Translations under genes and position numbers: made by a program
Origin: Camelus dromedarius
Taxonomy: Eukaryota
Reading direction: 5' to 3'
Assembly: GCF_036321535.1 (NCBI RefSeq)
Contig: NC_087436.1
Coordinates: 53,570,001 to 53,634,000 of the forward strand
Length of the DNA stretch: 64,000 nt
Shown here: positions 26,772-56,900 of the stretch, piece by piece
How positions within the stretch are numbered: the first letter of the stretch is position 1
Layout of the letters: each line of letters begins with the position of its first letter
The notes under the pieces: generated by a model
What the model was told of the DNA's origin: nothing
Seen by the model: only the letters and a program-made list of their open reading frames with translations
The model's database searches: none

Positions 26772-26797
26772 CGCCAGGGCCAAACGGACACGTCCGT

Positions 26798-26803
26798 CAC
26801 GTG
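26798..26803. promoter_or_regulatory. Proximal E-box CACGTG (MYC/MAX/USF)
   Basis: gtCACGTGaac, ~90 bp upstream of the ATG; CCAAT at 26816-26820. Confidence 0.8.
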
Positions 26804-26846
26804 AACAGTAGCCGGCCAATCCGGTTTGAATCTCATTTTTTTCCTC

Positions 26847-26858
26847 TCACCCCCCCTT
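26847..26858 (+). promoter_or_regulatory. 4EBE (eIF4E basal element, hnRNP K site)
   Basis: TCACCCCCCCTT (C7) versus recalled human TTACCCCCCCTT, in a TATA-less core promoter just upstream of the short 5'UTR. Confidence 0.75.
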
Positions 26859-26890
26859 CAGGAGCGGTTGTGCGATCAGATCGATCTAAG

Positions 26891-26908
26891 ATGGCGACTG
26901 TGGAACCG
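26891..26908 (+). CDS. EIF4E: EIF4E coding exon 1 (MATVEP)
   Basis: aagATGGCGACTGTGGAACCG|gtgagt, consensus donor, phase 0. Confidence 0.98.
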
Positions 26909-29900
26909 GTGAGTATTGCCTTTGGCCCCCACCCCCACCGGTCCCCGCGCTCCGTCTCCCTTCGGACTGGGGGACCCCGCGGGACGGCGTTCCCGGCGCG
27001 CACGCTACCCCTTGCCACCCCCTCCCCCTCTTCTTGGGCCTGACTTCTCGGCGGACAACTGGGGGCGCCCCGGAGGCTGGCCGCGACGGCGTGTAGAGCA
27101 CACGTTCTGGTGGGGGCCCGAGAGCCCGGGGAGAGGGGTGGGGGAGGGGCGGCGCCTCTTGCGGAGCAGCGAGGGGTCTACAAGGGTGAAGGGTGATCCG
27201 GGGCCTGGGCTAGGTGTGTGGGAATTGTGTTTTCGGGGTAGCAGGGCGCGGGGCCGGTTCCGAGCGGGCGCCGGGATCCGCAGGCAGGGTGGGCGGCGAG
27301 CTGGCCTGGAATGAGATGGAGGAGGGAACCCCGGGGCAGCCTTTTCCTGTCCCCTTCCCTCTCTCCCTCCCGAGCTGTAAACCAGGGGCTCGGGTGCGGG
27401 GCGTGCGCCGGGCTTCCGTAGACCGGTGGGCCAGGGAGCCGGTGGGCGCGCGTTGCCAGAGGATGGGCTGGGCGGGAGTGGTGCCGCGGCACGCGCGGTG
27501 AAGCTTCGACCTCGCCGAGGGGAGCCGAGAAGGGCGAGCACATGTTACTCCAGCGCGTCCGAGAGTTGCCGGGGTTGGAAGAGAGAAAGGTTTGGTGTGG
27601 GGAGGAGAACTCCGTGTCTTGCGGTAAAGCTGAGAGTAGGATGAAGGGTGGGTGGTGGTTAGAAGGGGAATCACATTGTCCTCGCCCCTCCATGCTTGAG
27701 ACTGGGCTGTCATGGAGGAGGGAAGGGGGAGGAGCGAGGCCTACTGATCGCTGCTGCGGGTCTGGTTGCCGGCCGGACCTGCTGCATTTCACACGCGACA
27801 GTCTTCCATTCATTCATCCTTTCCGAGCAGTGCGCACGCCTCAGAGAATGCGAATAGGCCTAGAGCCATCTGTTCTATCAAGTCTTTATTATCTGGAAGA
27901 TTTCTCAGACAGTTTATTGGAAATAGAAACTTAACCTTTAAACTTAATTTTCCATTTGATTTCCTCTTTATCTGTTCTACTGACTCTACTGTTACACTCC
28001 CAATTTAGGCACCATCTTAAACTGATTTGAACTGATCCCAGAGCCCAAAGTTGATAGTTACCGCCCAAAGGAGAGAGTATCTCTGTCACAGTTTGGGTTT
28101 GCCGACACTGGCTCACCGAAACTTCTAGGCCTGTGTTGCCATTTTAGGAATGTCACATCTGAGTAATACTGTTTTGTAGGCACAATGGAGTATGTTAAGA
28201 ACCAGAAAACCGTGATAACCCTGGAACCAGTTCTAGACCTGGTTGCCAGATACTTTTGCGTATCTAATGGTAGTTTGTGGTTTTGATATGGCTTACCAGT
28301 TTGCTTTGACTTTTTAAAGACTTTTAAAAACGAGTCATGAAAAGGTCTATAGAATACAAAAATGTATTTTTGTATTTTTCATTACTTTGATGCAAACAGT
28401 CCTTACCTTATTGCCGGAATTTAGGCAGCTTTCCTTCTTGGTTACTTGTTCTTTAATTGGTACCATTTATATTTATATTCCTGGAGATTAGGTTGACTGC
28501 AAAACTGTCTCTTGAGTTGCTGATACAATTTACTGATTTTAGAATGTAATTGTTAAACAGATAAAAGATAAATACGTAAACTTTTAACTTAAAATACTTT
28601 TAGTGGGATTTGAAGTCTGCTTCTGCCTGGATAAACTTTCCTACTCATTGTTGCTAGCTAGCGTCTTTAAAAAACGTTACAACTGGTGATAGGGGCAAGG
28701 CCAAACGTCTGAACCATAAAACAATATATTCTGTGACGTTTCAGTAACATTTGGGTCCTCTGGGTTTTGCAAAGCTCTGCAGTTTTTGTTTCAGTAGTGG
28801 GGAACAAAACTACAAAGTGTTGAAGGACTGTTTTGAGTCAGTAAATATTTATAGCGCCTGGTATGTTTAGGACCTTGTACCAAGTGTTCTTTAGGATACA
28901 AAGTTATACAAAATGTGATTCTATACCTTGTTCACTGCAGCTAGGCGCTTAATTTCCAGTGATGTGGTCAGTGATACACTATAGTATTCTTTCTAGTGCT
29001 GATTCCTGGGAGATTGGAATACTGCATTTAAATTTGGGGAGTAGGGAACCTAAAAGCTTACAGAGTGTCCAAGTGGAAAGCCATGTTGAAACTATTGTAG
29101 TTTGAGGGTGCATGTAAAATAGTATTTATTCATTTTTAGTTAAAATGCAAATTTTGGGGTACTTTTAATGCACCTTTGTCTACAGGTTAGTCAATTTTTG
29201 ACAGTTTTAAATAGTGGGATTTTTTAAATTAAAGCAGCTGATTAGTATTTGTTGCAATTGAGGTATTCCCTGTAAAAGCCTACAGAAAGCATATTTGTTC
29301 ATTGCTGTTTCAACTAGCTTGTGTGTTTTTGCTTTTTCTTGCTGCTTTTTTGCTGGGCATAATTGTAAGCACCGAAAGAGTCATGAGTTTTTCCTGCTTG
29401 TTCCATCTTTGTAGGCATTCAGGGAACTTTTATTTATGGCAATTACATAAAATATCAGTCATTTCAGTTCGATAGTTGTGTGATTCTCAAGTGTTTGTAT
29501 AGTATCAGTTAAAGATGTGGCTTACAGTATTTAATTTGTTGAGAAGCTTGATAGGCAAATTAAAGGAAGCGTTTTACCTCTTAAAGTGGCAGAATTTTGA
29601 ACATTGGGATAAAGAATACTCTCCTGTTATTCTTTTGGTATTTGAATCGTGGCTAGGTCAAAATTTTGTGGTTAGATGAAAGTTAGTCTTCATGTTAGTT
29701 GGTAAAGATGGCAGGCCATCTTGCGTCCTCCAATGGGTTGTGTTTTTTGGTAGCTGTTATCTTCATTCTCCATTCTTCATTGGGCTTTTTTTTGACTTGT
29801 AGTTCTTTCAGTAGTAAGAGATTTTGGTTTCTTTAGTTAAAATGAAGATGTATAATTTTACTTGTTTTTACATTGTATCTTTTTTAGCCTGTACATTAGT

Positions 29901-32900
29901 TTCATAAGTGGAATCAACTTAGTCAACTGATCCAGTGTTTCCTTTTTTATCCTTTAGAACATGTTTTGTATTGCAAAGAGTTTATAAAAGTAATTAAGTG
30001 TTAAATACATATTGACAAATATGTCATTATATAATTCAGTGTTTTTTTGCTAACCAAAGACTATTGATTGACAAGCAGACCTTGCAAATTCATATGCTTA
30101 TTTTTGCTCTAAGAAAGAACCCAGTTTATCAAAGTTCATTTGTAAACCAAACAAATTCAGTTCTGGTGTCTACATTTTAAATTTCACTTCATTTTATACT
30201 TTTAATTTATATTATGTTTAATTATTTGAGTTAGAGAAGTCCAATTTAGAAAGAGACATAGTTTACACGTGAAAGTTTCTTGGAGAATAAAATGTTAAAT
30301 GAATTATGTAACTTCAATCCTATTTGGATAGAAAATTCTACGCAAAAACTTAAAAAAAAAGTATTGTATTTAATTTATATAAAGTTGAGAATATAGTGGA
30401 AGTACCAGCAGTCCTGGACGTAACAAGGAACCTGTGAAATAGTTGTTTTGGCAATGGTAATTTTTTCTTTTACTTCTCTGCTACTATTGGAAATTCCCTT
30501 GCTCTTCTGATAGCTGTGAGTTGCTCCATCTTTATCATAGAGAATTTTTTTTTATCAACTATTAACATTTTAATTGAAATTGTATTACATACAATTTTTC
30601 TCTTTTTCATATATATTTTTATTGAAGTACAGTTTACAATGTGTCAATTTCTGGTATACAGCATAATGCTTCAGTCATACATGAACATACCTATATTCGT
30701 TTTCATATTCTTTTTCGCCATAAGTTACTACAAGATATTGAATATAGTTCCCTGTGCTATACATTATGAACTTGTTTATCATAGAGAATTTTTTGAGAAG
30801 TGGAATCCAGCATGAATTACCGTCCAATTTTAATATCTGTATGAACTTCAAGACTGAAATTTCTAAGTCTAGCTGAAAAATGGGAATAAGAGATCTTACA
30901 GTGATTTTGATTTTCCAATGCAGTATTCACAGATGACAGTTTGTCAGTTATGAAGAACTGTAAGTTAAAGCCAATATTCTGTGAATGTGTTGCATGCAGG
31001 TATATCCATGCATAGGTATACTCACCTTTGCCACTCTTTGCTGGGAGTAACACATAGCTGACTTTTCATTATCATTACTTTGCCATTAGCAAGAAATGCA
31101 ATGCTTATGACCCAAAACCCACAAATAACTCTTTCTACTCCTAATGTAACCATAAAAATCACTAAAGTGTCTCTTTCAAAGTCCCTATTCATGTCTAGAG
31201 AAAAAAGGAAGGATCATTTTTGTCTCTTGTGCACTAAATAGTTATTTCTAGTCACTTCTAGAACCTGAGAATGTGGTTAGAAAAATAAGATTTTTTTCCC
31301 TAGTTGTAACTTTTGATACATAGTCCTTAGAAACAATGAGAAACTGTAGTTTTGGCTCACTGTGTTCTATAAGTTTCTATGGAATTATGAAATATCTTAC
31401 CAGCATTGAATTTCCAGGGATGTGGATCTAGAGTTCTAAGTAACTGACTTAATAAAAAGATCTTTTAAACACCATCTGGAGGGTCAGGGAGGGTATAGCT
31501 CGAGTGGTAGAGTGCATGCTTAGCAACACAAGGTCTGGGTTCAGTTCCCAGCACCTCCTCTAAAAATAAATAAATATATAAACCTAATTACCCCCTCTCC
31601 AAAAAAATAAAAAATCAAAAAACACACAATCTGTAACAGGATTTTTTTTTTTTATGTAGGCAGATCTTTATTTGTTAATAATAGCTAACTCATAGCACTT
31701 TACATATGTCAGGCACCACACCAAATGCTTTACATGTTAATTGATTTAATTTTTACAGCAGCCCAGTGAACTGGGGATTATTCTTATTTCACAGATGAGG
31801 AAACCAAGGTGCAGAAGAATTAACTTTGGTGACTAACTCGCCCAAGATCATACAGCTAATAAGTGTTGGGGTGGAGTTCAAACTAAAGCAGCCAAGTTCC
31901 TGAGTGTGTGTTCTTAACCTTAACACTGTCTTTCCAATAGGCGTATAATGTGCATTCCTCATGTGACTTGGAAAAATTACTTTGATAAACAATGGATATT
32001 CTGCTACAACTCTGAAAGAAAATGTGTGGACATTTATTTGTTTTTAGTTGCTGTTGTACTACAACATTTGATAACTGATAACCAAAGTACAGAATCTTAA
32101 ATAGCACCTTGATGTAATAGTTAATACTGATCATACTTCATTAACTGGTCTAGAACTTTGTGGGTAGATTTCTGAAGAAAGTAAATGATCACTTCCTTCT
32201 CCTTCCCATTTGATTTTTGGACCTTGTCAATTCAAATGATTTGCCAGTTAAAATTTTTTGCTAGTGGAAACGGTGTAGTAAATTTTTAAGAATTTGAGAA
32301 TATGGAATTTATTGTCAACTACCTTTGTACTGTTAATAATTTTGGTGAAAGGTCTGGCAAAGAGTTAAGAAGCTGTTATGAAAAAGTTTCAGTTATAATA
32401 TGTTGCTAGTCTTAAAAGTAAATTATTTGGGGAAGATAGTATTAAGACCATAAGATTTCTCTGAAACCCCATGGCTTTGCAGTAATCTTTAAAGTTAAAA
32501 TGTTTTTAGTTACATATTTTAAACTTGTTATTACAAAATGCTGTACAGAAATTATCTTTTTGTGCTGTGCTTATTATAGTGACAGTCATTAAGATTTTAG
32601 TATTTATGTGAACTAATATTAGTACTGTTAAAAAAATTCTTAATGGGGTTTTGCATGGTCATCTTAGGGCAACAGCTTATACAACCACAGAGTCTGATAA
32701 CTTCAAGTATTAACTAAGACAAATATTTTAATAGAAAGATAAAATGTCCATCTTTTTCTTGTAGGGTTTTTTTTTTCCCCAAATCTTAATATTTTGGGAT
32801 AAATACTTATGAGTGAGAAACTAAAACTTAACCAAAACTATTAAAAGCCCAGCTCTTTACCTTCAGTAAAATTCTTACCTTAAGGATAAAATTGATGCAT

Positions 32901-35900
32901 AAGTCATCATTAGATCTCAAAAAATAAAAAAATCATATCTGTGAAAGGATGTATCAGGTGATTTATGGGTGGTGGCATGATGGGATTAGAAGTGATACAT
33001 TTTATTTTTTTGAACTTGTACAACTTTTTAATAATGTTTAGGATTGTAAAATCTCTTCGGTTTTGGTTTAAAGTTAATGGTATTTAGCTTTTTATTTTTA
33101 ATAACTTTTTTCCTTGAGGCTGAGTAATACATGTTTATAGTCCAAAATTCAAATGGATTTTTTTAGCAATCTGGTGGCACCTGTGACCTCATTTTCAGAA
33201 TGTTTTTAAATGCCCTAAATAAATACGTTACAAAGGGAATTAATTCTATTGAAGTTCAGTAAGGATTAAATACCTTAACATGAAGTATTAAGGATGCTGC
33301 CTGGCATTGCAAAGTACTATCTTAGTGGTGTGAAAAGCCTATCTCCTATCTGTTTTCTCCAGCTACCCCTAGTTCTCCTCTCCAAAGCATGTTAACCAGT
33401 TTTTTGAGGACTCATCTAAGAAAGGACTGTCCAAGAGAACTTTCTGTGAGTTGGAAATGGTCTATATTTGTGCTGTCCAGTATGATAGCCACTAGCTGCA
33501 TGTGGCTATTGAGCACTTGAAGTAAGACTTATCCAACCAAGGAAATGAATTTTAAACTTTTTAATTTAAATGTAATTTTAATTGAAATTTAATTCCACTT
33601 ATAGCTGATAGATACCAAATTGGACACTGCATTTCTAGAATCTAGACATATCTTTGTGTTTATGAACATACATGCATGTTATAACTTTGTAAGGTACAAC
33701 TGGGTATGACCAAGACCAATTTGGTTGGTCAAGTTATTGTTTAGTTTTACTCTAGGAGAACTTATCTATTATACGTTAAACTTTCCAAGGTCATTATTTG
33801 GTCTTGTATGGACAGTTAAAATTGTCCTAAAATTTAGATTGTCCTATGGCTTTTTTTTCCCCGCTTAAAAAAAGTGTGTGTGAATAGGCAGTTGTTGACA
33901 TTGTCCAAAACTCAAATTTTGTGCAAAAGAGTGGTTTCCTCTAGCTCATCCCATTCAGGTGGATCACCTCCAGGGGCAACCAGCTGATCAGTTCACATCT
34001 TTCCATAGAGATTTATATTCAGTTGGCCCTTCTTACCACAGGTTCCCTATCTGAGGATTCAGCCAACTACAGGTCAGATTTTAGAGGGCCATCTTACTAC
34101 ACCATTTTATATAAGGAACTTGAACATCTACAGATTTTGGTATTGGGGGTCCTGGGACCCATCCCCCACAGATACTGAGGGACAGCTATATATACACAGG
34201 CAAATAATGACATACAGTTGACCCTTGAACAACATGGGTTTGAACTTCAGGACTCCACTTATAGGTGGAGTTTTTTCACTAAATGTGTACTACACAACCT
34301 GCCATTGGTTGAATTCACAGATGCTGGACAGTGGATAAGGAGGACTGACTATAAAGCTATGTGTGGATTTTTGACTGTGCAGGGTTGGGTGCCCCTAATC
34401 CCTACATTGTTCAAGGGTTAACTGTATATACTTTAAAAAATAATAATAAATTTTAGCCAGCTATATACATTATTCTGGCACAGTGTGTTTTTCACTTAAT
34501 AATGTGTCTTCTAGAGCATTGCATATCAACACATAAAGCTTTCCCTTTCTGATGGTATGTATTAGGTGATTTGGTCTTAAACATTTATTTCTATACTGAT
34601 CAATGTTAGCTGGGGTCCAATTAAGGCATATAAGTATGTTGGAGTTTGTAACATTCCTGTATTGATTATAAAGGGAATATGATTATTAATTTTGGGTAAA
34701 TTGTAGTGCCATTGTGTTTATTGGTTTGGCCATATGATCCATACCAGATAAGCCTAGGAATAGGTGATAAATTCAATAATTAGAAAGATTGGTAACCACA
34801 GTAATTATTTGAGAAAGGCAATATTGAATTGAAAGGTGTGGGAAGATTGTTAGAGTAATGCCCCCTGAAGAATCATAACCTCCCTGTATTCATACCTTTG
34901 AGTAGTCTTCTCTCCCTGCTCCCCTCCTCCCCCAGGCGTCTAACATGCTTTGGCATTCCCACCATTTGCTATTTCAGTGCTGTGATGAATAGCCCTTTCA
35001 TCTGTATCATTCCATACATGAGATAATATACCTGTAAGGTGAATGTTTTAGTAACAAATTGAAAGTGAAAAACTCTACTAGTCAAATAAAACACTTCTGC
35101 AGCTGTAGTTGGCTATCAGGCTACAGTTTTTTTTTCTAGAGCTCCCTTCCTTTCTAATTGTGAGATGTTTATATGTAGAAAAATATAAAATACATGTGTA
35201 CGTAAGTTTTAGAGTAATAAACTGAAAACCAGAGTACCTATCATATGAGACATCGGTACCTCAGTTTTGTACTCCATAATCACATTTGCATTTCTTTGGC
35301 CCTTTCCCTACTCACTATCCTGAATTTCGTGTTAATCATTCCTTTGATTTTATTCTTTTTACAGGCTAATTATCTTTAGAGTTTCTCCAGAGTGTGTATC
35401 TTTTAGTTATGTATTTTAGTTTTAAAAAAAGAATAATTTAGATGATGTGTAAGGAAAGCACAGTATTGCTGTTAGATGAAGTTTCCTAAGCTAAAATAAG
35501 CTGAACACCATTTCTGGGCTATTGTTTGGCTTCAGCTTCCTGGAATTTCTACTGCACCCCTCTTGGCAAAACCAGTCCGTCATGAACATGTTCCGAAAAA
35601 TATAGGACTCTATGGTTACGTAGTGGGTTGTGGTATGCACCAGGCAAAGAACCTTTAGTTAGGAGAGTGGTTGGTGGGAGTGATCTGTTCTGTATCTTGT
35701 TTTAAGAGTAGGTTAATTCTGGTGTGAAATTCTTAGCTGTTCCAGGTAGCAGAGCACAAAAGAATTTGGAAAAGAAGCTTTGTTATCACATATTTAAGCT
35801 GAATTATCTGTAGGCACATGGCAATCAGTGATTTTTGTTTTTTGTTTTTTTAAAAGGGTAGAATTGTAAGCATCTGGGTCATAACAGACACCAAATGAAT

Positions 35901-38900: not shown

Positions 38901-41900
38901 CCTGACAGTTTCTTTTAAGAAATCTCTTAAAAGTATAATTACCGGGTGAAGGAATACAGATTTTTTTTTTAATATTTGGAAACTTGATAGTTCATTAACT
39001 TAAGTAAAGAATATAACCTACTCTGTAAACCTGGGGACATTTGAAGCAGTGACTATCATAAAGAAATATAGGTTGATTTCTTTTGAAAGATGACTTAATA
39101 AATGCATGGAGAAAAAAGGGCAAATTAATTTCCCTATTAAAACCTTAGTTTACATTGAAATTTTAACTTTTAACATAGAATTTTAAAAAGCCTAACACAT
39201 GGAATTTAAAAAGAATTCAACTGCTTATTTAACTGTGACGTGTAAATTTTTTTGTGACTGATTTTTTTAAACTAACATTTAATTAATGGCATTAAATTCT
39301 AGTTATGCTTTTCAAAGTTTTAAAAGGAATAAACTTTAAAAGAAGCAGCAGTTAAATTCTTTAAAATGTTTGCCTTTCAAATTGTGATTATAAAGCTTTT
39401 AAAAGTGATTGAAACAAATTACCATGTTCCTGGAACCAGTATAATTTTGTGCACTGTAAATACTTATCTTAACACATTTTAGTGTTATGATTTATTTTGA
39501 ATAAATATATTTATTTTGAATAAAAAACACTTTTTGCTTTTGTATAATGTTCAACTGTTGCAAATCTTTATATAGTTATTTTAAAAATAAGAGTCTTCTG
39601 GTAGCCTTTGGTTTAAGTAGCACTGACATTTAAATTTTATTGGTAACCTCATCATTCTAGATCACTTATGTTATTACTTGTTCCTATTACACTTTCTTTT
39701 CTGAATTTGTAAACTTGTCCTAAGCAACATAAGATATGCAGAGTAATTTTGTTGACCGATATATTGCTATTTTAAGAATTAGTTTATTTTAAATGTAACA
39801 AGATGCCTACAAGTCTTTCTTGTAGTTAAGGATATGTGCTTCCAAGTTTTAAAATTATATTCTAGAAGATCAGAAATTCAAGTATGGCCTCTACGGATTT
39901 TTTTATACTTGTAAAATGTAGTTAAGTATGGCTTGCTGTCTATTCAGAAGTAACCAGTTTTTAGATCTGGTATAGCAAATTTAACTGTTCATTTAAAAGT
40001 CTAGTGCTAGTTAGTCATCAATTTTAGTCAGGTAATTACATTATTGTTACTTAAATAAATTGAACAACTGTTAAGTTTTGCCGTGTTTTTAGGCACAACA
40101 CATTTGTACAAATGATGATAACTCTTCCCTTCTATACCTCAGGTTTCAGTATTTTTTGTTTAGATGTCATCTTACATTAGCTGAAAAGAATATTTAAAAA
40201 ACAACTGTTTTTTGAATCTGAATTCATAAATATCTCACAGTCCTTCCCATGAAAAAGTTTTCTCCATTTGAGCAAGTGCTTTAAACTTAAAAGGTTTGTA
40301 TTTTGCTAAATCTACATAGGTTGTTTTTCTACTTCAACTTTTTAGTTTATGGCACAAAGATCACCATTTTGATCCTTTGTTACAGACAAGGAAGAAGAAC
40401 TGCAAAATCCACAGGCTCACTTTTCCAGATGAGTGATGCTAGATTAACTGGTATTCCTTTACTGTAGTTATATATTTGAAAAAGAACACTCGTAACTATT
40501 GATTTAATTATTTGTTGTAATTTTCATTGTTTACACCAGATCTTTCATTCCTTACAAAGCAGGAGGTGAGACTCTGCTTTTGTGTACTAGTTAATTAATT
40601 ATACTAATTTATATATGGGCAGGTGCTGGGGGAAATGCATCTTTGCTAAAAATTAGAGACTTGTGAACTGAATGTTTGGATGCTAAAAAGAGTGAAGTGT
40701 CATGAAATCTATTTACATATACATTACTTATATTAAACAATCATCATTATAGAGCTAGTTATTTGTATCCAGGAAAGAGAGCTTTTATTTATTCTTACAT
40801 GTATTTCTAAGATATTTGATGGCATAGGCATTTATTTAGTATGCTATCTTGCATAATAAAATAAACTCATTGTAATTAATCATTGGCATTTAGTTCCTTT
40901 TTTTCCTGGTAGTGGGATTTTGTGTGTGTGTTGGAAGAGTGAGGTGTACCATTCGTGCCTTATTTTCCTAATTTGCCAGTGGAATGCACCTGGAAGATAC
41001 TGACGGTGTTGAATGAACACTAGGCTGTGATATGAAGCATAGTACATACTGTAGGGTTATGCTGCCTGGAAAGAGTACCTTGGTAATCACATATAATTTA
41101 TTATCTAATTCTGGGCACTTTTGAGAGTGAACAAGGGCTCTGCTAATAATTATGCTGAAACAACAAACAGGTAAAACTGGGACACACAGTATTTCTAGTC
41201 ATGAACTTTGACAGTCCCACAATAAAATGTAGAACACAGTTAGGAGATGTTTACCTCCCAGGGCTTAAATTTGAAGAGCAGAGAAAATAGTTGTTTCACA
41301 GTATTGTGAAAATTGAATATATTGAGATAATATATTGAGATCATGTATATAAAAATACGTAGCCCATTGTTTCTTAGTAACGGTTTAGTAAATGTTAACT
41401 GTCAAAGTAAAAACTCTTAATTTGGTTGAAGTGTGAGGGTTGGTGTTACCACTTTAAAAATCATAAAGCACCCTCATTCTTTTCTGTTCTTACTTTGCTT
41501 ACCTTTCTGTTCATCATTTCATATTTTTATTTAATGTGTGTAATGCCTTCAGTTTACTGAATTGTTGGGTTAGTAATTTGTAGAGATAATTGCAGCTGTT
41601 TTTGCCCTAATAGCATTTATATTTTTATTAAAGCCACAAATAGTCTTTGCAATTCAGCTTAAAAACTAGTGAAGGAAGGGAGAATGTAAGGAAGTGCTAC
41701 TGGAGATGAGTTACCAATAATACTGTTATCTATTTGTTACTGTGGTATTTTACCCAAAACTATATACCCGTGAATGCCAGAGCTAGGATTCCAACCTGGG
41801 TAACAGGGCTCCAGTATGTGTAATCTAAACCAGTGCTCATCCTACTCTGGTAGAAAACTAGTTTGCTTTTTGATTTGTTTTTAAACAGTTTCAATCTAAT

Positions 41901-44900
41901 GTTTTTATAAAATGATGACAGTAGGATAAAGAAGATGAAAAAATGTGTACAAAATGTAAGCCTGTATTTTTGTATTATTTATTAGTTTGAACATAGAAGT
42001 ACTGTCAAATTGTAATATTCTCTTAATGTTTACTTTCCATTTCTGTACTTAACCTGGTTGTACACTGTAACCAGCAGGAGTCTGAGGACTATATTATGAA
42101 TTACTGCTTTAAACCATTATTAGTGCCAGGAAACTATTGATTTTTGTGTACTTCCAATGAACACTTAGGTGATGTCCTAAATGGGGGGAAAAATCCTGGA
42201 AGTTCTTAGGAATAAATATTTGTTCAATGAAGTAATGGACGCAAATTGGGTGTCCTGAAGGAAAGTCTCCTTATCTTTCTGGAAGAGAGATTTTGTGAGT
42301 GTTTAGTTTTAGGATTGCTCAGGAATCTTGAATGTTCATAACCATGGAAATAGTGCACCTTGGTTTTAGAATTTAAGCAGTGTGGATTTAACATGGCTAG
42401 AAGGAAGAATCTGAACTTTTTAGACAGATTAGAGAAAACCCCACAGAAATGATGCTAGAACTGAGAAAATCTAGCTTTATAATATTAGGATTGTCCTATT
42501 ATAAGGTTAATAATTGTGCCTGATACATGTGCTGATTTTTGCAGAAAGTACTAAAAAGCTACTTGATATTTTTTGCAGCTAATTGTTAGACTTGTCCCAC
42601 TTTTGCTTGACTTTATTTCTTCCCCTTCAACTTTCTTCTGTTGCCATGACAGCTACTGAGCCCTGGGACCACTAAATTATAATTCTGTACATTTTTATTT
42701 GGATCTCATAAACTCAGCAAATCCAAAACCAGGTTTAATAATTTTTACTCAAACTGGCTATCTTTTCTATTCCCTTGTCATCTGTATTTAATCACTGACC
42801 CGTCAATTAATGGCCTCCATTGCTCACAAGCTGAAAGACACACCTTTTAAGTCTGACCTTTGAGACCTTTTACAGTCTTGTTTCAGCCTGCCAGTCTAGC
42901 TCTTTGGTTTCATGAACCCTCACTTTCAGTCTCCCTGGTTCCTTACCATCTTCTAGATAAGCACTGCACCATCTCATGACTTTGCTCTCCATTCTACCCA
43001 CCTGAAATGTGTTATACAGTGGTTTTTCATCTGCAGGTTGTCTTTTAGGTTAAAATTGTATTTGATTACTTTAAGAGTAACCATAATCTGTTAAATTAGC
43101 CTTTCCTGTTTTGTCTGGATAATTTTCAAACGAAGTCTTGGTAAAACATGGCTATTTAAGACATTATTTTCAATGAAATTTGCCTTCGGGGGAGACCACC
43201 AGCCTGAGAGAGTAGGTGGAGGGATGTTGTGGGAATTTGCAGTAAAACTTTTTGTTTTTAAACTGAATGTAAATTTAAAATTATTTTACTGTCTGCTCTA
43301 TAGGAAGCAACCATAAAAATGACAAGTTTGTACTTTTTAGTTCCCATATAGATCATGTGATAATCTTATTACTTCTTTGACAGTCATATAATGTTAAAAA
43401 ATCTGATTAGATCCACTTTTAAACATATCCCATGAAAACACCTGTTAGGGGCTTTCAGGGAGAATTTAGTGAAGTTGGTGCTACAAGGATCATAGTTCCT
43501 CTTTACCTATTTTCTGATGATCCTAAGTCTCAGATACCTAGTAGTTAACAGCCTTACAAAGAATCTTAAAAAGAGATACAATTTCAAAATAATTAAATTT
43601 TATTTCCAAATTCAATTAATATTAAAATACTTAGCAAATTAAGACAAATAATGAATAATTTTGAGATTTGTTATAGTTAATTGAGGAGTGACCTGAAAGA
43701 ATTTTTAAGTATCTTTTAAAAATGAATATATTTCTTCTTTCTTATTTGGCATATGTCCATATTTATACGTAAGTTTTCATCGAAGAATTTAGTATAGAAT
43801 GGCCATCATTCTGAACATCATTTCTCATTTTATATGTTACCATAAAATTGGAAGGTCCCTAGGAATTCGAATTTCCCCATAGAATAGATCACCTTCATAG
43901 AATTAACCTGAAAGTTTAAAATAACATCTTACTGTATTTTGCTTTATCTAAGTTGGAGATGAGAAAGAAAAAAGTATCTTGATTATTTGTATCAAAGTTA
44001 AGAAGTTTTAAACAATAAATAAAATAAGTTGAAAGAAATGAACAGAAAATGATTTTATGAGGCATGTGTCAGTCAGTAGTCTCAAACAAAAAATATTTTC
44101 CTTTGTAATAGTTTACAACATAATTGCAGAATCAAGAAGCTTACAGAATGAATGACTGATAGCAAGTTTTTTGTCTTAAATTTCTGTGATTAAGAATGGA
44201 TTGTTGACATAAATAGATGGCCATAGCAGAATATGACCTAACAGAAAATTGTGCTGAGAAAACATGCCTTTTTAACATTAATGTTTTCATAATTAATTTC
44301 TATCATGAAAATGATTTCTGAATCTTACTAGATTTGATCTGTGCCATGTAAATGAATATTTTTGTAGATTATTTGAGTATTTGGTATTCTGTCATGGAAA
44401 CAGTTGACTCTTAAAACCACTTTTGCTTTATTAAGAGGATTTGAGAAATTCAAATAAGTTTAAAAATTTGAACATCTGTTAAACTGTTAAAAGGCTAAAA
44501 ATGAAATATCAGTATTATACTTACATTTTTAAAAGTCTTCAAATACCGAAAAGATGATTGTCTATGATTAATAAGCATTTTTTCTAGAATGTTTTAGAGC
44601 ATTTGTCTTAAAATCTATCATGTTTATGTAATACTAAAAGTGAAGACTGAAAGATTTTAAATTAGCATATTTATTCACACATTCACATATTTATTTAAAG
44701 ATGAGTAACTTTTTATTTCAGTTATAGGAAAACTCCAAAATTATATATTCTTAATATAAAGACTAAAACTTCAATTAAAGTAGGACTTTTAATTCAAAGG
44801 AACACTTCCTAAGGAAGTGACCATATTTTTTTTCTGTGTCATTACCTGCTTTTAGTTCCTACATATCTAGAGACTTTTGATACCATCTAAGTCTTCCATC

Positions 44901-47900
44901 ATTCTCCTGATGGTGAGAGAGTAGAATTAAAGGAAAGAAAGTACTGAATTTTCTGATGGTGAAAGAGTAGAATAAGAGAAAAGAAAGTACTAAATGAGTT
45001 AGGAAGTGACATTTTGGACCCCAAAAAACTAGTAATTAATTCATTGTTTTCTGTGTGCTACTGAGGTAAGAGGTGTAAATAAATACTGTGGAAGTATGGT
45101 TTGTAATGAGGATTTTGAACTTATGAGTAAATTTTACTTATCATTTGTCTTTTTTTTTTTTTTCCAGAGGGGAGATAATTAGGTTTATTTACTTATTTAT
45201 TTTCAATGGAGGTACAGAATATTGAACCCAGGACCCTGTGCATGCTAAGCACACACTCTGCCACTGAGCTGCACCCTCCCCCCTCATTTGTCTTTTAATT
45301 TAGGTGGAAAAAAAAAAAGAATTTGTAGTATTAACTTTGGGAGGAAGAGTATCTTTTACTCACACATCCAACCTCACATACACATATATGCCCAGCCCTT
45401 TGGTAGAACCATCATTATTATTTTAAACTCCAAAAGGCATCATTATTATTGCTCCTTCAAATTGTTAATTAATAGTCTTTTATATATTTATCTACATATT
45501 TACCTTTTCCAGTGCTTTTCTTTCTTTTTTACACTTCCATGCTCCCAACTGGGATTTTTTTTTTCCCTCTAGCCTGAGAGTTTCCTATGGTGTTCCTCTT
45601 ACTTTGGACCTTTCTGGTATGAGTATGAGTGCGTGTCTGTCTGTCTACGCGTGTGGTGTCTGTCTGTCTGTGTGTCTTTATTTCTCTATTTCTAAAGGAT
45701 ATTTTTCTTAGGCACTGAATTCTAAGTCGACAGTTTTTTCTTTCAGCACTAAGATGTTGTTCTGTTGTTTTATGGCTTCCATAATTTTCTATTGAGAAGT
45801 TAGCAGTTACTGTTCTTGTTCTTGTGAAATAATATGTAGTTTTTTTCCCCCTTCCTAACTGCTTTTAATATTGCCGCCTTTAGTTTTCAGTAGTTTGAGT
45901 CTGATGGGCCCAGGTGTAGTTCTGTATGTATTTATACTGCTTGGATTTTCCTCAGCTTTTTGAACCTGGCTTGAGTTTCTGATGTAATTTGGTAAGTTTT
46001 GGTTATTATTTCTTTCTGCATTGCTTCTGTCCCATTCTTTCTCATCTTGTTCTTTAACTTTTTTAATCGTCTTCCACATTTCTTACCATCTATTTCCCCC
46101 TCTCTGTGTTTGAATATTTTTTATTGACCTGTCTTTCAAGTTCACCCGTCCTGTGTTCTGCTGAGTTCACTGTGTTGTTCATTCAATGAGCTCTTAATTT
46201 CAGACATTGCAGTTGGCAGTTCCATTTCTACTTGATTCTTTGAAAAAATTGATTTCAATACTGCTTTCAAATACTCCCATTTTCTCCATCTTTCCCCACC
46301 TTCTATTTTACCATAGTAATCGTAGTTATTAAGACTTTGCTAATTCTGTCATCTGGAACATGTTTGAGTGTCTTTCTATTGACAGTTTAATCTCTTGATC
46401 AACAGTTGCTTAAAAAATTTTTTTTGGATGTCTAATGTTTGATTGTTTGCTAGGTATTATAAATAATATTCATAGAGCTTCAGGATTATGTTATGTTCCT
46501 CTCAGGGGTGTAGAGTTTGGTTCTTGAAGACAGTTAATTTATAAGTAGATTGCTTTAATCCCGTCAAGGATTAGTTTTAAAATGTGTTAAGCACATGTAT
46601 TTCACCTGATTCCTAGGACATGGCCTTTCTAAGATTTCATCTGAAAGCTGAGGATTTTTAACCATCCACTCTAGCTAGGTCTGAACTCATTCTTCCTAAT
46701 GCTGTTTGACCTCTGAAGTCTTGGCTCAACTCTTCTCTGCCAGGCCACCCAGAGTTGCACTATAAACATAACAGTTTAGGAATCAGCCAAGGATTTGTGA
46801 AGGATTTTTACATAGATTTTTGACACTAATTCCTCTGCAGCTCACTCTGCCCTGGTACCCTGTCCACCAAAGTCCATCTGCCTTGTCAGTCCCTAACTGT
46901 TCCCTATTTTCTCTATCCATTCAAACTGCCTCTGTCTGGAGACCATCATTAATTTTAAGCTAGTAGAGTGAGGAATAATATTTGGTAATGATCATCTATT
47001 TGAAGATTTAAATTGTTGTGATGAGAAAATGCTGGTTAAAATTATTGCTTTTTTTTTAAGGCAGTGACTACTATATGTAAATTTTAGGGCCTTAACTACG
47101 TTTAAACTTATTCAGTTAAATGGGGAGGGTATAACTCAATGGTAGAGCACATGCTTAGCATGCCTGAAGTCCTGGGTTCAGTCCCCAGTACCTCTGTGAA
47201 AAAATAAGTAAATCTCTTCAGTTAAGTAATCAAGCCAGTAAGTTCCTATTGGGTGTAGCATTGTGATCATCGCCATTACAGTTGTGAGCAAAATCAAGAT
47301 AAAACCTCTGCCTTGAGTGAGTTTATAGGCTAGTAAAAAGTAGTTTCTGGAGGGGTCGTATTGATTTAAAAAGTGTATTTTATTTTATAAAATGAGTATC
47401 ACCTATCTGAGGTCTTTCTCTGATTTACATAATCTTGTTAATGAGAATATATATCTCTACTGTTTTGCTGGTTTGATTTAAATCTGATATACAGACCCTT
47501 GTTGCATGCTCCCCCCTTTTTTGTGTCAGCTTTTGTTTCAGCTTCTGGTGCCTTTTCTTGGCTATTCTTTTGTTTGTACCGGTTTATAACAGGATGAAGA
47601 ACTACACAGAGTAATGTGGACAATACATGTTATTCCCAGTCTCCTTTTTTTCCCTGACATTTTTAGATGACAGTGTTAATTATGTCTTTCCTAGAAGATT
47701 TATGTTCAAGCCAGTGTTCAGTTTTTTTGCTTAAGGCCAATTGAAAATGACAGCAGATACTGAACTTTAAGTTACCATATGTCATAACAGTATGACATGA
47801 AGGCAAGAACCTGTGTAGTATTGACTTGATCACTTTATAAGCTTTTTTGTCATTGTGATATAATCTTTATACTCTCCAAACTTTAGTTGTACTCTTACTC

Positions 47901-50900
47901 TTCTGCCCCCCTCATCCCACTGCCAGTACCATGCACGGTCTTTAATGGTATGTTAAGAAAGGTACCTATTTTTCCCAAACTTTGTTGCACTGTCTCTAAC
48001 AATCTTTCTGATATTAAAATGTGTAAGTGGAAGATAACAATATATAAAATTATTATTATTTTTAAATTAGAGAAACCCTTTGCTCTTGATGAAGAAATGC
48101 TAGAATGGAGAGTCCGGTGCTTTTCTTAGAGTTTGGTCTGTGTTCCGTTTTATCAAATGATTCTGCTGTAATTTCTTCTCCTTAAAAAATAATATGGACA
48201 ATATTGGTTCAAATTTAGAGTATTGTCGTAGAAATTAAGAAATTTCTTAGTGTTATTTCTTGATGTTAAGAAATTTATGTTTAATTATTTTCCACTAGGA
48301 AACCACCCCTACTCCTAATCCCCCACCTACAGAAGAAGAGAAAACAGAATCTAATCAGGAGGTTGCTAATCCAGAACACTATATTAAACATCCTTTACAG
48401 AACAGGTAAGCTTTCTGACACATAGGTTTTCTGACTTAGGCAACAAGGTAAATGGTGAATGGGACAGGTTTGGAGGGAAAGGTTAGATGAGACTAGTTTT
48501 AGATATGTTAGGTTGAGGATTCTGTTTTCACTTGGATGACCCACGCCTAGCAAGCAGCTTTTGTGTGTGAATCTTGAGCTCAGAAAGGAGAAATGTTTGA
48601 AAGATTGGTTTGAAATTCATCAGTAATGGTAATTGATGGTAATTGAAATTGCAGTAGTAAATGAGTTCTCATAAGTGAACTTGACCCATGACAGAGGCTT
48701 GGAATATTAGCACATAGGGTTTTTTTTTGAGGGAGAATGCCTATGAAAAGTATAGACATATAAACTATATAAACTAGGACAGAGTGCTGGTCATGGAAAC
48801 CAAGAAAATGATATGTTTTAAAGACAAGATGGTCAACAGTATATGTGTCACAAAAAGGTCGAATATTCATTGGATTGATTGAATGACGAGTTCTTGCTAA
48901 CATAGAGTTTGTAGGGTAGATGATAGATTTGAGACTTTGAATAGAAAGTAAACAAACGAATAGAGCAGGAATAGGCAATTTGAAGTTGGTCTGTGAAGGA
49001 GAAAAGAGAGCTATGGGATGTGGAGTCTGGAGGCTGGTTGGTTTGTATTTAAAGATAAGTTAGAATAGGAGAGTTAAGATGAGTTAAGTTTTCATACTTA
49101 TAGTGTAATAGTTTAATAGTTTAGTATATGGTTTTTCCTAACTCTGCCCTATCACTTCCCAGTATGTTTGTATTTTTACTTAATTGTCTTTCTGGTTTAT
49201 ATAATGAAGATTAACATGAATTCACTGAGAGCTGATGGTGGGAAGAAAATGGCAAACTAGAAACATTGTAAGAATGTGGAGGAAAGTAAACTGGAATTAA
49301 CTTCTGAGGATCTTTAAGTATTTTGATTCCTTTCATTCCCTCAGTCCTGGGCCTTTTACTCTTTACTTTAAAGATCCCACAAGCCTGTCTATGATTTAGT
49401 TGCATTCATCTAAATATGTTGTCATCATTTCTTCATTATCATGATAGACCTACTGAAATAAAATAGTCCAGTCACGTTTTAGTAGTGTTTTCTTAGGAGA
49501 CCTGAGGTTCAGCCTGTCCTCCAGTGAGGAACAAACCAGTTCTCTAGACAATGGGGATTATTGCCACATAGTGAGATATCAATGGTCAAATAGTCCATAA
49601 AGGATAAAAATCCATTCTGAGGATTTTTATAATAAAGTAGTAAGTTGAACAGTCTTTTAATTGCCAGTCGAATTGGTCCTAGTCTGATTTATGAAAACAA
49701 TGTCTTGTTTTAAATTTGCATTTCTTTCTTTGAAGTTTCAAAACACTTTCTGTATTGTATTGATCATTTTTATTTTCACCTGTGGGCAGTCTGTTCAGTT
49801 CTTTTGTCTATTATTTTCTTTTTGGTTCTCTTTTCAAGTCTATTTCCAAGCATTGTATATTAGGGATGATAACCCATCCAAGGAGGGGGAATAGGTTGAA
49901 AATGCATTTCCGAATCATTTGTCCTATAACATTGTTTATGGAATTTTTTTTTTAAGAGGTTTTTGATTTTCATGTAATCAAATGCCAACTTTCCTCCATG
50001 GTTTCTGGGTTTCGTGTCAGTCTTAGGAGAACTTTACTCACTCATTTATCCTATTTAATAGCTGCATAGTAGTCTCTTGCATGGATATTTTATTTAAACC
50101 AGCAGTTCTCAGACTTTCTGATCTCATGACCCCTTTACATTCTTAAAAATTACTGAGGATTCCACAGTGCTTTGATTATGTACACTTTTATTTCCATTTG
50201 TTACATTAGAAAGTAAACCTAAAAAAATGTAAAATTACATATTCACTTAAACAGCCCATAACTTGTTCATGTAAATATTTTAATGAAAAAATTTATTCAA
50301 AATAAAAAATACTTAGTGGGAAGAATAGTATTCTTGCATTTTTATAAATCCTTTCAAGTGTCTGACTTAGAAGAAGTCAGCTGGATTTTTATAGCTGCTT
50401 TCTGCATTTCAGTCTTTGGAGATGAGTTGTTTCAAAGAAACTAAGAATAAAATATGTCCTCACAGGTACATGGCTGGAAAAGGGAGTTTTTTTTTTTTTA
50501 ATTTTTTTTGGAAAAGGGAGAATTTTTAATAGCCTTTTAAAAGAATTATGGATATCTCCTTGATACTAGGTTTCTTATAGGTTAGTTGTAGTGTAGAATC
50601 TGAAACCGTATCTAAGCTTTTTCTACTTTGTTACATTAAAATCCATTGGCCTATCTTACATTTGTAATGGATCCTTCTTCACTCGTGCATGAATTTGCAC
50701 ACCACTGGTCATTTGGAAAATACTGGTTCAGTGAGTTTGCAGAGCATCCAGATATTGGCACTTTTCATTATATAGTATCAAAACAATAACATTCGTTAAT
50801 ATTAGTGTTAAACTCATCAGAAATGTCTTTAAGTTTTAATAAGTTGTCAAGCTCACAGTGACACATACAGGCTTTCCAGAATTCTGGTTTTCTCCTGAAA

Positions 50901-53900
50901 GCTCAAATTTTAACAACTGTCTCACTCTGTTCATTTTTCGAGAGATAGCCATCTGATCAGCCTTTCTTCCAAGTAAAAATGGTGTTCCATGAAAAAGTGA
51001 CTGGTTCATCTCATAATTCAGTTGCCTAAGAATTGTATTTTGGTATGCAGAAGTGTTTTTGTGTGGGAAAAAACATGTACACAGATTGAAATTTAATGAA
51101 ACCAATAATTTTTACTGCTTCATCAATGGCATTATTAACTGAAATGGACATTGTTATTACTATAAGAGTTGGTAATAATAAAGGATACAGTGACTACTAG
51201 TATGAGTTGATACCACTATATGATTCTTGCCTGCAAAACTAGTAGATTTACTAGCCATTGCTTTTGTATCATCAGTGCAGATGGCAACACAGTGAAAAAT
51301 TAAAATAATGTCTTAGCATTATTATGAAATAGTTTTTACTTACTAGCTCTCCTGAAAGAGTCTTAGGGTCCTCTAGGGGCCTGCAAACCAGATTTTGAGA
51401 ACTATGACTTAAATAATCCCTTGCTGATAGGCACATAAGATGTTTCCAAATTTTCCAAAATTAGGAACGTTCTTGTACAAACTTTTGCTTAGTCATCCAG
51501 TTACTTTCTTAGGATAAGTCTTTATATGTTTAATTGCTGAATGTGGTTTTTTTTTTAAAGACTGTATTAAATTTTATTATTTATTATTTTAAATTGAAGT
51601 ATAATTGAGTTATAACATTAGTTTCAGATATATAACATAATGATTCAGTATTTCTGTATGTTGTGAAATGATCACCACAGTAAGTATAGTTAACATCCAT
51701 CATAGTATAGATTTATAAGTTTTTTTTCTTGTGAAGAGAATTTTTAGGATTTAGTCTCTTAGTAACTTTGAAATTTATGGTGCAGTATTATGAACTATAG
51801 TCACCATGTTGTGCATCACATCCTCATGACTTTTTTTGTTTTATAACTGGAAGTTTGTACCATTTGACACCTTTCATGCATTCTTCCAACCCTGTGTCTC
51901 TGGGAACCACCAGTCTGTTATCTGTATCAGTGAGCTTAGGCAGTGGTTGTTTGTTTTTGTTTTTGTTTGTTTGCTTTGTGTTTTAAGATTCCACATATAA
52001 CTGAAATCATATGGTATTTGTTTTTCCTGTCTACTGTCTGATTTATTTCACTTAGCATGGAGTCCTCAGAGTCCATCCATGTTCTAAATGGCAAGATTTC
52101 CTTCTTTTTTTTTTAATGGCTGAATAATCCATTGACTATATATACCACATTTTCTTTTTTCATCTCTTGATGGAGATTTAGGTTGCTTCTATGTCTTGGC
52201 TACTGTAAATCTGCAGTAAACATGGGATGCATATATTTTTTAAAGTTCATGTTTGTTTTCTTCAGGTAAATGCCTAGAACTGAAATTGCTGGGTCAAATT
52301 GTAGTTCTTCTTTTAATTTTTTGAGGAAAGACTCAATTTTTAGAGTTACAGATTACAGTTCTTGACGTTGTCTGTGGGTGTGTAATAGTTTTTCTGCCTT
52401 TGCTTTTTTTCCCCTGATATTGGTTAGCAAATAGATTATAGTTTTTTTTAAGTAGGTGTTGAAATGCATCTCATTTTTATGTCTGAGATTAACAAGCATT
52501 AATCATGAAGTTATGAAATATATGTCCATTTGGAAACCTGTCTTCAGGCAACATTTTTATCAATGGGTAAATGAGATTCCCTTTAATTCAGAAAATACAA
52601 TTTTACTGAAGATGAATCGTTGGGATAACATTTAAATGTAACTTTGATGTGACGTGAGTTTATCTTCAAAGTATTAGAATAGATCTATTTTCAGCAAAAA
52701 TGTATACAGATATATATATAGAAACTAGTAATATGTTATTTTAGAATATCTGTAGTAGCATTACTCAATCAGGTCTTTTATTTTGTTATTTTTTTCCCAT
52801 TTGTGTGTTTGGGTCCCCCCTTCCTAGCACTCTGATTTCTCTCCTCTTGTTTTTCTGTAAATTCAACTTTCCTGTTCCCTACTTTCTTTTCCAGTTAAGT
52901 GTTCCTGCTTTATTTTTTTAGGTAACTTGTGCTTAATTATCTTTGTCATAGCACTTAGAACACTATAATTGTCTCTCTACAACATTTCTTTGAATCCCTT
53001 GTGGAATGAGCCTAAGTGGATCTCTTAAGGATAGCAGAGAATCTGTTACATAGTAGGTACAAAATCCATACTTTTAAAATGAAAGAAATAGAGAAAATTA
53101 CTCATTATTTGCTACTATAAATAAAATTTTAATTAACTTATTTTCACTTGTGGTGAAACACATACATAAAATTTACCATCCTAACCATTTTTTGAATGTA
53201 TAATTCAGTAGTATTAAGTATATCCACGTTGTTGTGCAAACAGTCTCCAGAACTCTTATTTTGCAGGAAAACTTACACTCTATACTTATTAAACAACAAC
53301 TCTCCATTCTCCTTCCCTTTTAGCCCCTGGCAACCACCATTCTACTTTCTCTCTTTGAATCTGACTACTCTAGGTACCTCATATAAGTGGAATTATACAG
53401 CATTTGTCTTTTTTGGTTGGCTTATTTCACGTTCTTATCTTTTTAGAGCTCTTTAGTATTCCATTGTATATTCTACACCACATTTTGTTAATTTTGTTCA
53501 TCTGTTCACCTGTCAGTGGACACTTGGGTTACTTCCCTCTTTGGCTTTTTTGAGTAATGCTGCTTTTAGCATGGATGAAAAACTACCCTTTTGTTGTTGT
53601 TGATGACACTTTCTGTTTTTAGATGGGCACTCTGGTTTTTTAAAAATGATAAAAGCAAAACTTGGCAAGCAAACCTTCGGCTGATCTCTAAGTTTGATAC
53701 TGTTGAAGACTTTTGGGCGTAAGTAACCATTTTATATTTTATGATTGTTTTATTCATTTTGTAATTTTTCATTTTATGTTTCAGCCACAAAGTGAAGGGT
53801 AAGGTGAATAGTTAACATTCACCTTTTTGTTTATCTGTCTTCTCACAACTGTTTGAACTGGTGATTATTCCTCATCAGTTTTTGAAAGCTTCTGTCTTGT

Positions 53901-56900
53901 CATCGTTCAGCTCTGCCTATTCTCTCTTCCTTGTTCTGAGATATCCTTCATTGAGAATTTTTATTGTCCTTAGAAGTTTTGACAAATTGTTGGAGCTTAT
54001 CCTCTTTCTTGGGTGCTCAGATGTATTTGTCCCATACTTGGATTTTCCAGAGCTTTGTTAGATCTCTATTTCTGCAAATTCTTTTTAGTGTGTAACATCT
54101 AGATTTCTTGTGATAGGGATTCTGAGATTTCAAAGGCTGAACTGCGTAAAATTCAGGGTTTGTTAAAGAATGTGACAGTATCTGCAATGATAGTTTATTA
54201 ATACCAATATACTTTGTGATCAACTTCAAGAAAAATAGTTGAAATATTTTTGAGATTTTGTTTCAGAGTTAGAAAAAAGTTAAAAAGTTGTTTGGCTTTC
54301 ACCAGTTTACATAATTGTGATTTTAAGTAGGCATCTAATTAGAACATGGCTCCACACTTTAGTTGTATGTAAGCAATATCATAGCTTGGTGGATTTTTAC
54401 ACCATAATTTAGTGGTAAATCCACCAGCTTTCTATAAATATCTAAGTCACTTCTTAATTTCTCACTTTTGGGGGGCAAATTTAGTGGTAAACAACCAGTT
54501 AGGGTTTTTATTTTGGATGTATCCAGTATATAATGTTAAAATTCTGTTTAATAAAAGTGCCATTATACACACTGTATGTAAACTTACTAAGAGACCTTAC
54601 AGAATGATGAAGGAGAAAGGAGGCAGCAGAAAGAAACTGATCTTTTCTACCTTGAATGCCATTGAAGGAGGTCACTTCCACACTATCCGTTAATTTTATA
54701 AAAGTGGTGGTGGTAATTCTTTAGTTCGTATCCAGGTCTCTCTTTTGCCTAGTAGAAGCTGTCAGTGATAATGTAGTTTGGGAAGAGTTACCATTAAAAA
54801 AACAACCCAACAGACCTATGCTGTCTCACCCAAATTGGATTTGAGTTTTTACACTGTGGAGTGTGATCCAAAGGATGCCAGACTCTTAAAACCCTGCTTG
54901 AAATATTCATAAACTGGCTTAAAATTACACCAAGAGAATCTTACTAAGGATAATAGCATCATTCATGGTCTGTAGTCATATAGCTAAGATCATCACTTTT
55001 GTATCTGACGTTGGAGACATTGACTCTGTTGTCAGTTTTGTAACAGTTTTGCTGTCAGGAGATCTTATGATCTAGCCTTCTCCTTTCAGGCTAGTGAAAT
55101 CTAGTCATCCTAAATGTTAATCTGTTACATTGCTATTTGGGAAATAATTTAGAAACACAGATTCTATGCTTCCCCCCTATATTTAAGGAATTAAAATCCC
55201 AAGGAGAAGAGTATGAAACTGGGGTGGATGGGTGTGTGTGTGTGTGTGTTTTAAGTTCCCCAAAAGATTATTATGCTGGCTGATTGGTAATGGTCTGTGG
55301 TGGTTAAGTGGGGAACCGTTGGTCTGTTCTACTCTTGGTTACTTTCAAGGATAATAATGTTGGTTTATTTCAATCATGCAATCCTTATAGTCAGGAAGTT
55401 TGTCTTGCTTTCTCTTGACTTTTTCTATTTTGTGTGGTTACATTTGCTCATGAGCCTCACGAATTCTTTCATCTACTTAAAGCCACCTCACACCTTTATT
55501 CTCAGTTTCTTGTGTTTACATGTGTATGTATTAAGTTAACTGATACATCAAAATATTTTTATTAGAATAAAATTATTAAAAATACTTTCTTTAAACTCAT
55601 CATATGTTGATTCTTAAAGCTGACTATTATTAAAATCTATTTGGTCCACTTCAGAGCTTGATTGCATAGAAAAAAAGTAAACATGAGCTTTTATCTTATT
55701 TTTTTCTTATTCTCTGAATGTACATATAAGCACCTAAACTCTGCATTACATATTCTGTTTATAATTGTCCTTTTCTTTTACCTAGTCTGTACAACCATAT
55801 CCAGTTGTCTAGTAATTTAATGCCTGGCTGTGACTACTCACTTTTTAAGGTATGCTTGTTAATTTCATGTATTTAGTGTAAGACTCAACCATTCAGGTAG
55901 TCATTAAAAAGCTTGCCATAAACTTAACAATGGTTAATGCTCTGATGCTTGGAGAATAATTAAATTAGTGTTACCAGGCTTTAGCATAAATATATTTTGC
56001 CCTTTTTTTGTATAAACAATTAAAATTGAGAGTCTTATTTGATGGGCACATAGTATGATTGATTTGGAGAGAGCTTTGATCCTACAGTGCAGTCTATTCT
56101 TTATTTATTTAAGTAGACTGAAGTTCAGAGTTTGCCAGGAATTCTTAACCTGAGGTAATGTGAGTCCTTGAGATATTTGTTAGTGAGTTTTGTAAGGTGG
56201 CAGTGGGTGGTATATTCATTAGCTCTCTGAAATTGCATAATTCCTATATATATTTTCTAGGTATAGAAATGTATATAGCTTCTCAGAGGTGTTACTCAGA
56301 ATGTTTTGGAGCCTCCAAATTAAGTGAAACCCAAGGTTTGATAGCTAATAAGTGCTCAGGTCAGGGATCTAATTCTGCAATCCCATGCCTCTGGCTTTAA
56401 GTCTCATGTGTTTTCTTCCCCACTACATCAGTAATGGTTTTGTGGGAATAAAGTAAAAAGCTTAACAGCGTTGTGGTTTGCTGTTTCCAGTGATGATGTC
56501 TTAAGTTAACGTAACAATAATGTAACAATCTAACAGTGTTGTCTCCTAACCTTGTAGGATGGTATTGAGCCTATGTGGGAAGATGAGAAAAACAAACGAG
56601 GAGGACGATGGCTAATTACATTGAACAAACAGCAGAGACGAAGTGACCTGGATCGCTTTTGGCTAGAGACAGTAAGGTTTTAAAATGATAAAGCTGTTTT
56701 TGAGTACTGAAAGTTAATTGACATTATTTATGTTACTTAATCAAGGAGGAAATAAGGATGCCCACTCTAGAAATGTAAGCCAGCACTTAATTTTGTTCTG
56801 TCATGTGAATCTTATTTACATTTTACCCTCCACCACATTACAAATCCAGAAAGTGATTGGCAGTGGACTCACCTTATACAATAAGCTCATCCTGGTCATT

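Follow-up and report, generated by a model that had tools for sequence, protein, structure and literature searches.

A strong 5′ splice site lies deep in the 21.4-kb first intron of EIF4E, preceded by a usable 3′ splice site at a distance of 26 nt, and we hold with roughly even confidence that the pair outlines a cryptic (decoy) exon that is used at noise level. The gene was found in a window, here meaning the whole 64,000-nt stretch of Camelus dromedarius DNA that was analysed, for which a first-pass annotation had proposed a poison micro-exon acting as a tissue-regulated splicing and decay switch. The observation behind that proposal is confirmed and its sequence facts hold: an AG ends at 40539, the 26 nt occupy 40540-40565 and GTGAGA follows, with letters and coordinates as claimed, and a TACTAAT motif is present at 40602-40608. 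These elements may or may not form a switch, and the reading-frame logic of the proposal is right. In the account that we lean towards, an exon so short would be poorly defined and normally skipped, and its occasional use by the spliceosome would shift the frame into a stop at codon 71, within exon 3. The occasional inclusion message would then probably be cleared by nonsense-mediated decay (NMD), and the impact on the eIF4E level would be negligible and unregulated. Starting from signals, a frameshift and a stop geometry that can be read from the DNA, this account would add low-level use, decay and an absence of regulation.

The gene in the window is EIF4E, read from the + strand, with seven coding exons that give a 217-aa protein. 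The predicted protein is identical to a named bat eIF4E (P0121) at 215 of 217 residues, contains W56, W102 and E103, and has methionines at positions 1, 86 and 101. Intron 1 is 21,390 nt long and all introns together come to about 33 kb. The exon chain is as follows.

26891-26908, + strand: EIF4E coding exon 1, encoding MATVEP, with donor GTGAGT
48299-48405, + strand: EIF4E exon 2, 107 nt, whose frame would shift upon the 26-nt insertion
53623-53718, + strand: EIF4E exon 3, 96 nt, holding W56
55786-55849, + strand: EIF4E exon 4, holding Met86
56558-56671, + strand: EIF4E exon 5
58564-58703, + strand: EIF4E exon 6
60380-stop, + strand: EIF4E exon 7

The candidate and its surroundings comprise the following elements in intron 1.

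40540-40565, + strand: candidate 26-nt frameshifting micro-exon, predicted from sequence signals
40566-40571, + strand: donor GTGAGA, 10.3 bits by an approximate matrix
40386-40565, + strand: longest of the putative alternative exon outlines, 180 nt
40485-40537, + strand: AG-free, U-rich zone before the 40540 acceptor, 53 nt
40602-40608, + strand: QKI-type, also branch-point-like, motif, starting 37 nt past the exon end

Splice sites were scored with position matrices whose frequencies are approximate, and by these the candidate has canonical AG/GT boundaries and usable signals. The donor ranks second among the 1297 GT sites of intron 1 by this approximate matrix, under which the real EIF4E donors score 5.5-12.2; the single better decoy donor (10.4 bits, exon-side base 45065) has no candidate-grade acceptor within 250 nt. 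The two splice sites had been described as a plausible acceptor and a strong donor, and while the donor is indeed strong, the acceptor is only ordinary. It scores 5.8, which equals the acceptors of exons 2 and 3, and ranks 106th of the 1286 AGs in the intron, with stronger ones upstream, and this rank favours the decoy reading. The AG-free stretch that precedes the real EIF4E exons measures 19-71 nt, and the 53 nt before the candidate fall in this range; of the 1212 AGs in 28-48 kb, just 48 follow a run of at least 50 nt. Branch-point-like adenines at 40502 and 40507 (-38 and -33 from 40540), together with the AG-free zone, favour 40540 as the first AG reached. The GC content of the candidate micro-exon is 38%, versus 25% in the preceding 100 nt.

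Both boundaries of the proposed 26-nt exon are present, but this length is one of several, as six AGs can share the donor and the 5′ end of the candidate exon is not fixed. Longer outlines begin at 40386 (180 nt, acceptor 8.4, 22-aa frame), 40429 (137 nt, acceptor 9.9, 18-aa frame) and 40468 (98 nt, acceptor 6.0, 9-aa frame), each with its own early stop, while inner AGs would give in-frame exons of 6 nt (start 40560, score 4.3) and 3 nt (start 40563, score 5.75). The further statement that no repeats are recognisable at ~39.0-41.0 kb was borne out: 39000-40570 and 40400-40700 each have one match in the 2.31-Gb assembly, namely themselves (lower bounds, common words being skipped), and self-BLAST and a tandem-repeat scan of the window list nothing in 39-41 kb. 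Interspersed repeats in the EIF4E introns lie at 31487-31624, 45150-45289, 47121-47215 and 51736-52328, and comprise three members of one short SINE-like family and a longer element that is more diverged.

Chance was assessed by counting pairs of a donor and an acceptor, each at least as good as the candidate's, that stand 3-30 nt apart. Block shuffling of 28001-48250 produced an equal pair in 23% of 300 rounds, and shuffling of all six EIF4E introns did so in 34% of 600. Elsewhere, equal pairs were found twice on the antisense strand of the window, twice in bases 1-26000 and eight times in 400 kb of control DNA taken from 20 places in the same genome. Taken by itself, the pair of splice sites is no more than chance would supply in a gene whose introns total 33 kb, and because equal or better pairs arise in this way the decoy reading is favoured. 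Requiring an AG-free zone of at least 28 nt, a criterion chosen post hoc, left 13% of shuffles and one of the eight control pairs; raising the requirement to at least 50 nt, likewise post hoc, left 3% of shuffles and none of the eight. The QKI hexamer occurs six times in the 21.4 kb of intron 1, which by simple arithmetic corresponds to about a 2% chance per 60 nt, for a motif that was picked after the fact when several other regulator motifs would have suited equally. AG-free zone and motif, both chosen post hoc, raise the candidate above a typical decoy, and it differs from the usual cryptic exon by an AG-free zone longer than in any of the eight control pairs and by a regulator motif on the activating side. 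These features count against the decoy reading: an AG-free zone in the range of real exons (shuffles P = 0.03, post hoc), a QKI-type motif on the activating side whose hexamer is sparse in the intron, and branch-point-like adenines before an acceptor equal to those of exons 2 and 3, in a single-copy region. On the other side, longer introns show more unproductive splicing, which is mostly interpreted as noise (excerpt of PMC11387194). Like the cryptic or pseudo-exons of long introns outlined there, the candidate is deep intronic, combines a strong with a middling site, faces competing acceptors and shifts the frame (excerpt of PMC11387194); it also resembles them in being absent from the proteins and retrocopies examined.

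The same exon chain is found in two processed, intronless EIF4E copies at other places of the genome, which are 93-94% identical across exon 2.

G000:C37:96994966-96995069: EIF4E retrocopy L003, exon 2 match
G000:C16:55115499-55115602: EIF4E retrocopy L004, exon 2 match

Exon 1 is joined directly to exon 2 in both of them and the candidate micro-exon is skipped; retrocopies sample abundant germline mRNA only, and are hence a weak negative for a micro-exon. Neither 8-residue reading of the candidate exon occurs in any of 261 proteins among the matches listed, a sample that draws on 120 of 328 family matches with at most 15 members per cluster. Such protein negatives are weak, since protein databases seldom include NMD isoforms. 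Searches with the shifted exon-2 frame returned no candidate among proteins of 22-72 aa, and gave six matches in 50% representatives and five in proteins of 79-252 aa, none of which joins exon 1 to the candidate; lengths of 73-78 aa were covered by the search of 50% representatives only. Absence from the 261 proteins, from both retrocopies and from the shifted-frame searches favours the decoy reading. Two apparent traces were set aside. Bird N-termini that end in FFKQ before the exon-2 peptide resembled the candidate's in-frame reading and were judged to be probable read-through of the exon-2 acceptor, and a 5-residue match of P0040 to 40508-40522 (E 0.45) was treated as chance. A run search with 40300-40700 found the stretch in 18 of the 24 runs listed, two of the 18 recorded as RNA, which is no sign of splicing because pre-mRNA or DNA also contains intronic words. 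An exact 24-nt scan of metagenome contigs gave no matches and is uninformative on mammalian conservation.

Inclusion of the 26 nt had been predicted to give a 70-aa frame that ends at a TGA in exon 3, and translation confirms it.

53682-53684, + strand: premature TGA, codon 71 of the shifted frame, in exon 3

The four junctions placed downstream of this stop do exist, at distances of 34, 98, 212 and 352 nt, but only three of them clear the 50-nt rule. Inclusion would place the stop beyond the 50-nt limit for these three (98, 212 and 352 nt), the arrangement expected of a poison exon. The expectation that this stop triggers NMD is supported by these three junctions, yet the stop is codon 71 of the frame and ends at nt 213, on the border of the start-proximal escape zone, so that NMD of the inclusion message is likely but not certain. 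On average NMD is weak within ~200 nt of the start, with a gene-specific boundary at ~21-100 codons that downstream AUGs do not predict, according to an excerpt of PMC12776119. The longer outlines of the exon would stop at codons 10-23, and so would be likelier to escape NMD. The first AUG past the premature stop, 68 nt beyond it, is Met86, which shares the eIF4E frame and has a weak context. Its product would be 132 aa long, identical at 131 of 132 residues to annotated mouse isoform 2 (P0177), and would be without W56, one of the two cap-binding tryptophans (excerpt of PMC5006505). Decay would be a likelier fate of the inclusion message than partial escape with re-initiation at Met86, which is nevertheless possible.

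We consider it possible, if doubtful, that the candidate is instead a regulated poison exon, whose inclusion in muscle, heart or glia would be promoted by QKI or another factor bound downstream and would lead to NMD and less eIF4E; this grading is a rough weighing of the points below. The exon could measure 26 nt or, with the same donor, be longer (137 or 180 nt). The strength of the donor, the AG-free zone and branch-point-like sites that favour 40540 as the first AG, the three junctions beyond 50 nt and the single-copy region all argue for such an exon. So does the motif, as the positional rule invoked for QKI, by which downstream motifs accompany inclusion, is real (excerpt of PMC9122611); a QKI-type motif stands in the proximal downstream intron here. 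In this the candidate resembles the QKI-activated cassettes of NF1, CLSTN1 and MARK3, but those exons have CLIP peaks and change on differentiation, whereas the candidate offers the motif alone (excerpt of PMC9122611). Similarly, it shares with the poison exons of SRSF3 and TRA2A/B, and with those of DLG4 and GABBR1 under PTBP1, the cassette arrangement, the frameshift and a stop before the last junction (excerpts of PMC10123112 and PMC11387194). Those exons have measured inclusion, NMD sensitivity, a regulator and often conservation, whereas the candidate is known from its sequence, and eIF4E, unlike the SR proteins, is not a splicing factor.

Several negatives, all weak, speak against regulation. 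EIF4E is absent from a catalogue supplement of 5322 annotated human unproductive events (PMC10123112), which is weak evidence as the control EIF4A2 is also absent; no EIF4E event was found in the supplements of an NMD-event study (PMC7347940); and EIF4E was not found in a study of human QKI-knockout cardiomyocytes, across four supplement files and 70,675 characters (PMC7782589). Moreover, most neural and muscle microexons under tissue regulation keep the frame (0.74; excerpt of PMC7821500), and the candidate is out of frame. A more elaborate version, in which a conserved, QKI-activated, frameshifting micro-exon sets eIF4E dosage in muscle, heart or glia while part of the message, given a stop at the border of the escape zone and 68 nt ahead of Met86, escapes decay and re-initiates to yield the 132-aa eIF4E, strikes us as unlikely. 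If it were true, splicing would switch the main cap-binding factor between full-length, destroyed and truncated forms, and the last would lack both the cap-stacking W56 and the W73 surface, a binding site for eIF4G and 4E-BP. The mouse 132-aa isoform 2 is like the product expected from re-initiation after the premature stop, but the known EIF4E protein isoforms differ from the candidate in that none of those fetched carries its segment.

The 5′ end of EIF4E is alternatively spliced, with a human isoform 2 of 248 aa and an isoform 3 of 237 aa (excerpt of PMC5006505), and the isoforms on record include mouse isoform 2, 132 aa from Met86 (P0177), and forms of 185 aa. The 185-aa forms come from annotations of rodent, bat, cat and lizard genes (P0033, P0035, P0041, P0178-P0181, P0186), and their length, together with one N-terminus, would fit in-frame skipping of the 96-nt exon 3. 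Retrocopy L004 keeps ~440 nt 5′ of the start codon unspliced (window 26470-26909), while the N-termini of rabbit, hare and pika isoforms map to 26492-26518 and then 26861-26908; together these suggest an upstream start and an optional 5′ intron in EIF4E. At the GC-rich start of intron 1, segments at 27031-27109, 27542-27589 and 27651-27844 match alternative N-termini of other mammals, of the human isoform 3 type, of a seal isoform and of an unnamed transcript in a shifted frame, and are probable alternative first exons. Five further segments of intron 1, at 28784-28837, 35525-35593, 41774-41860, 42631-42687 and 47963-48022, are homologous to exons of gene models from night monkey, fin whale, apes and colobines, bat and fox.

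The donor of the candidate might instead belong to a transcript that begins inside the intron, either as its first exon or as a longer non-coding one, which upon splicing to exon 2 would leave Met86 as the first in-frame AUG. In annotated eIF4E isoforms of other mammals, many segments of intron 1 do serve as alternative 5′ exons, the end of one macaque model corresponds by homology to 40356-40385 (8 of 10 aa, E 0.032), and a 132-aa isoform from Met86 is on record in mouse and others. We nevertheless regard such a transcript as improbable: none of the 87 N-terminal extensions tested, which come from eIF4E-family or shifted-frame proteins, maps to 40540-40565, the donor region is AT-rich and without a GC-rich island, and the last 60 codons of the frame that enters the donor contain stops but no Met. 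At 40356-40400, AC rather than GT follows 40385, and the AG there is the 8.4 acceptor, which stands before a purine-rich, enhancer-like run.

Neural microexons of the SRRM4 type are 3-27 nt long, preserve the frame and have a UGC just upstream of the acceptor, and eIF4G1 and eIF4G3 have neural microexons. The candidate has the length, at 26 nt, but 26 is not a multiple of 3 and there is no UGC in the 15 nt upstream; relative to the tissue-regulated microexons (excerpt of PMC7821500) it is likewise alike in being shorter than 30 nt, and differs in being out of frame and without the upstream UGC. A 3- or 6-nt microexon starting at 40563 or 40560, which would extend the eIF4E N-terminal tail by E or QE and turn the first 20 nt of the 26-nt stretch into a polypyrimidine tract, would leave the frame open, as regulated microexons tend to (excerpt of PMC7821500), and could use inner AGs that score close to or below the 5.8 at 40540, but it is highly improbable given that no UGC stands just upstream of the inner AGs, that the AG at 40539 is the first one downstream of the likelier branch points, and that the E or QE insert occurs in none of the 96 proteins carrying the exon-1 peptide, among the matches listed, its motifs being absent from the extensions too.

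Literature listings, searched by titles and starts of abstracts with subscription journals largely missing, describe no EIF4E intron-1 poison exon. Such an exon is not mentioned in the accessible parts of an eIF4F review (PMC12709193), a nuclear-eIF4E preprint (PMC12324239) and PMC13172548. No EIF4E event appears in the supplements of PMC4317164 other than file 1, in the supplement of PMC3446288, where one pathway name is the only hit, or in the microexon table of PMC7821500, the last being a weak negative with no 'Eif4' match at all. GENCODE, VastDB or further supplements may already list the event.

If the candidate is only a decoy, it would join the many that long introns contain and be of little interest. 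eIF4E, which binds the mRNA cap, is a drug target and a dosage-sensitive proto-oncogene; work on half-dose mice reportedly bears on this dosage sensitivity. Its control is usually described via the 4E-BPs, phosphorylation by MNK and transcription, and a regulated poison exon, if true, would add a dial at the level of splicing. It would also tie global translation in contractile or myelinating cells to QKI, and would present a target for splice-switching oligonucleotides, a purpose for which a cryptic exon with this donor could be suitable even if cells leave it unused.
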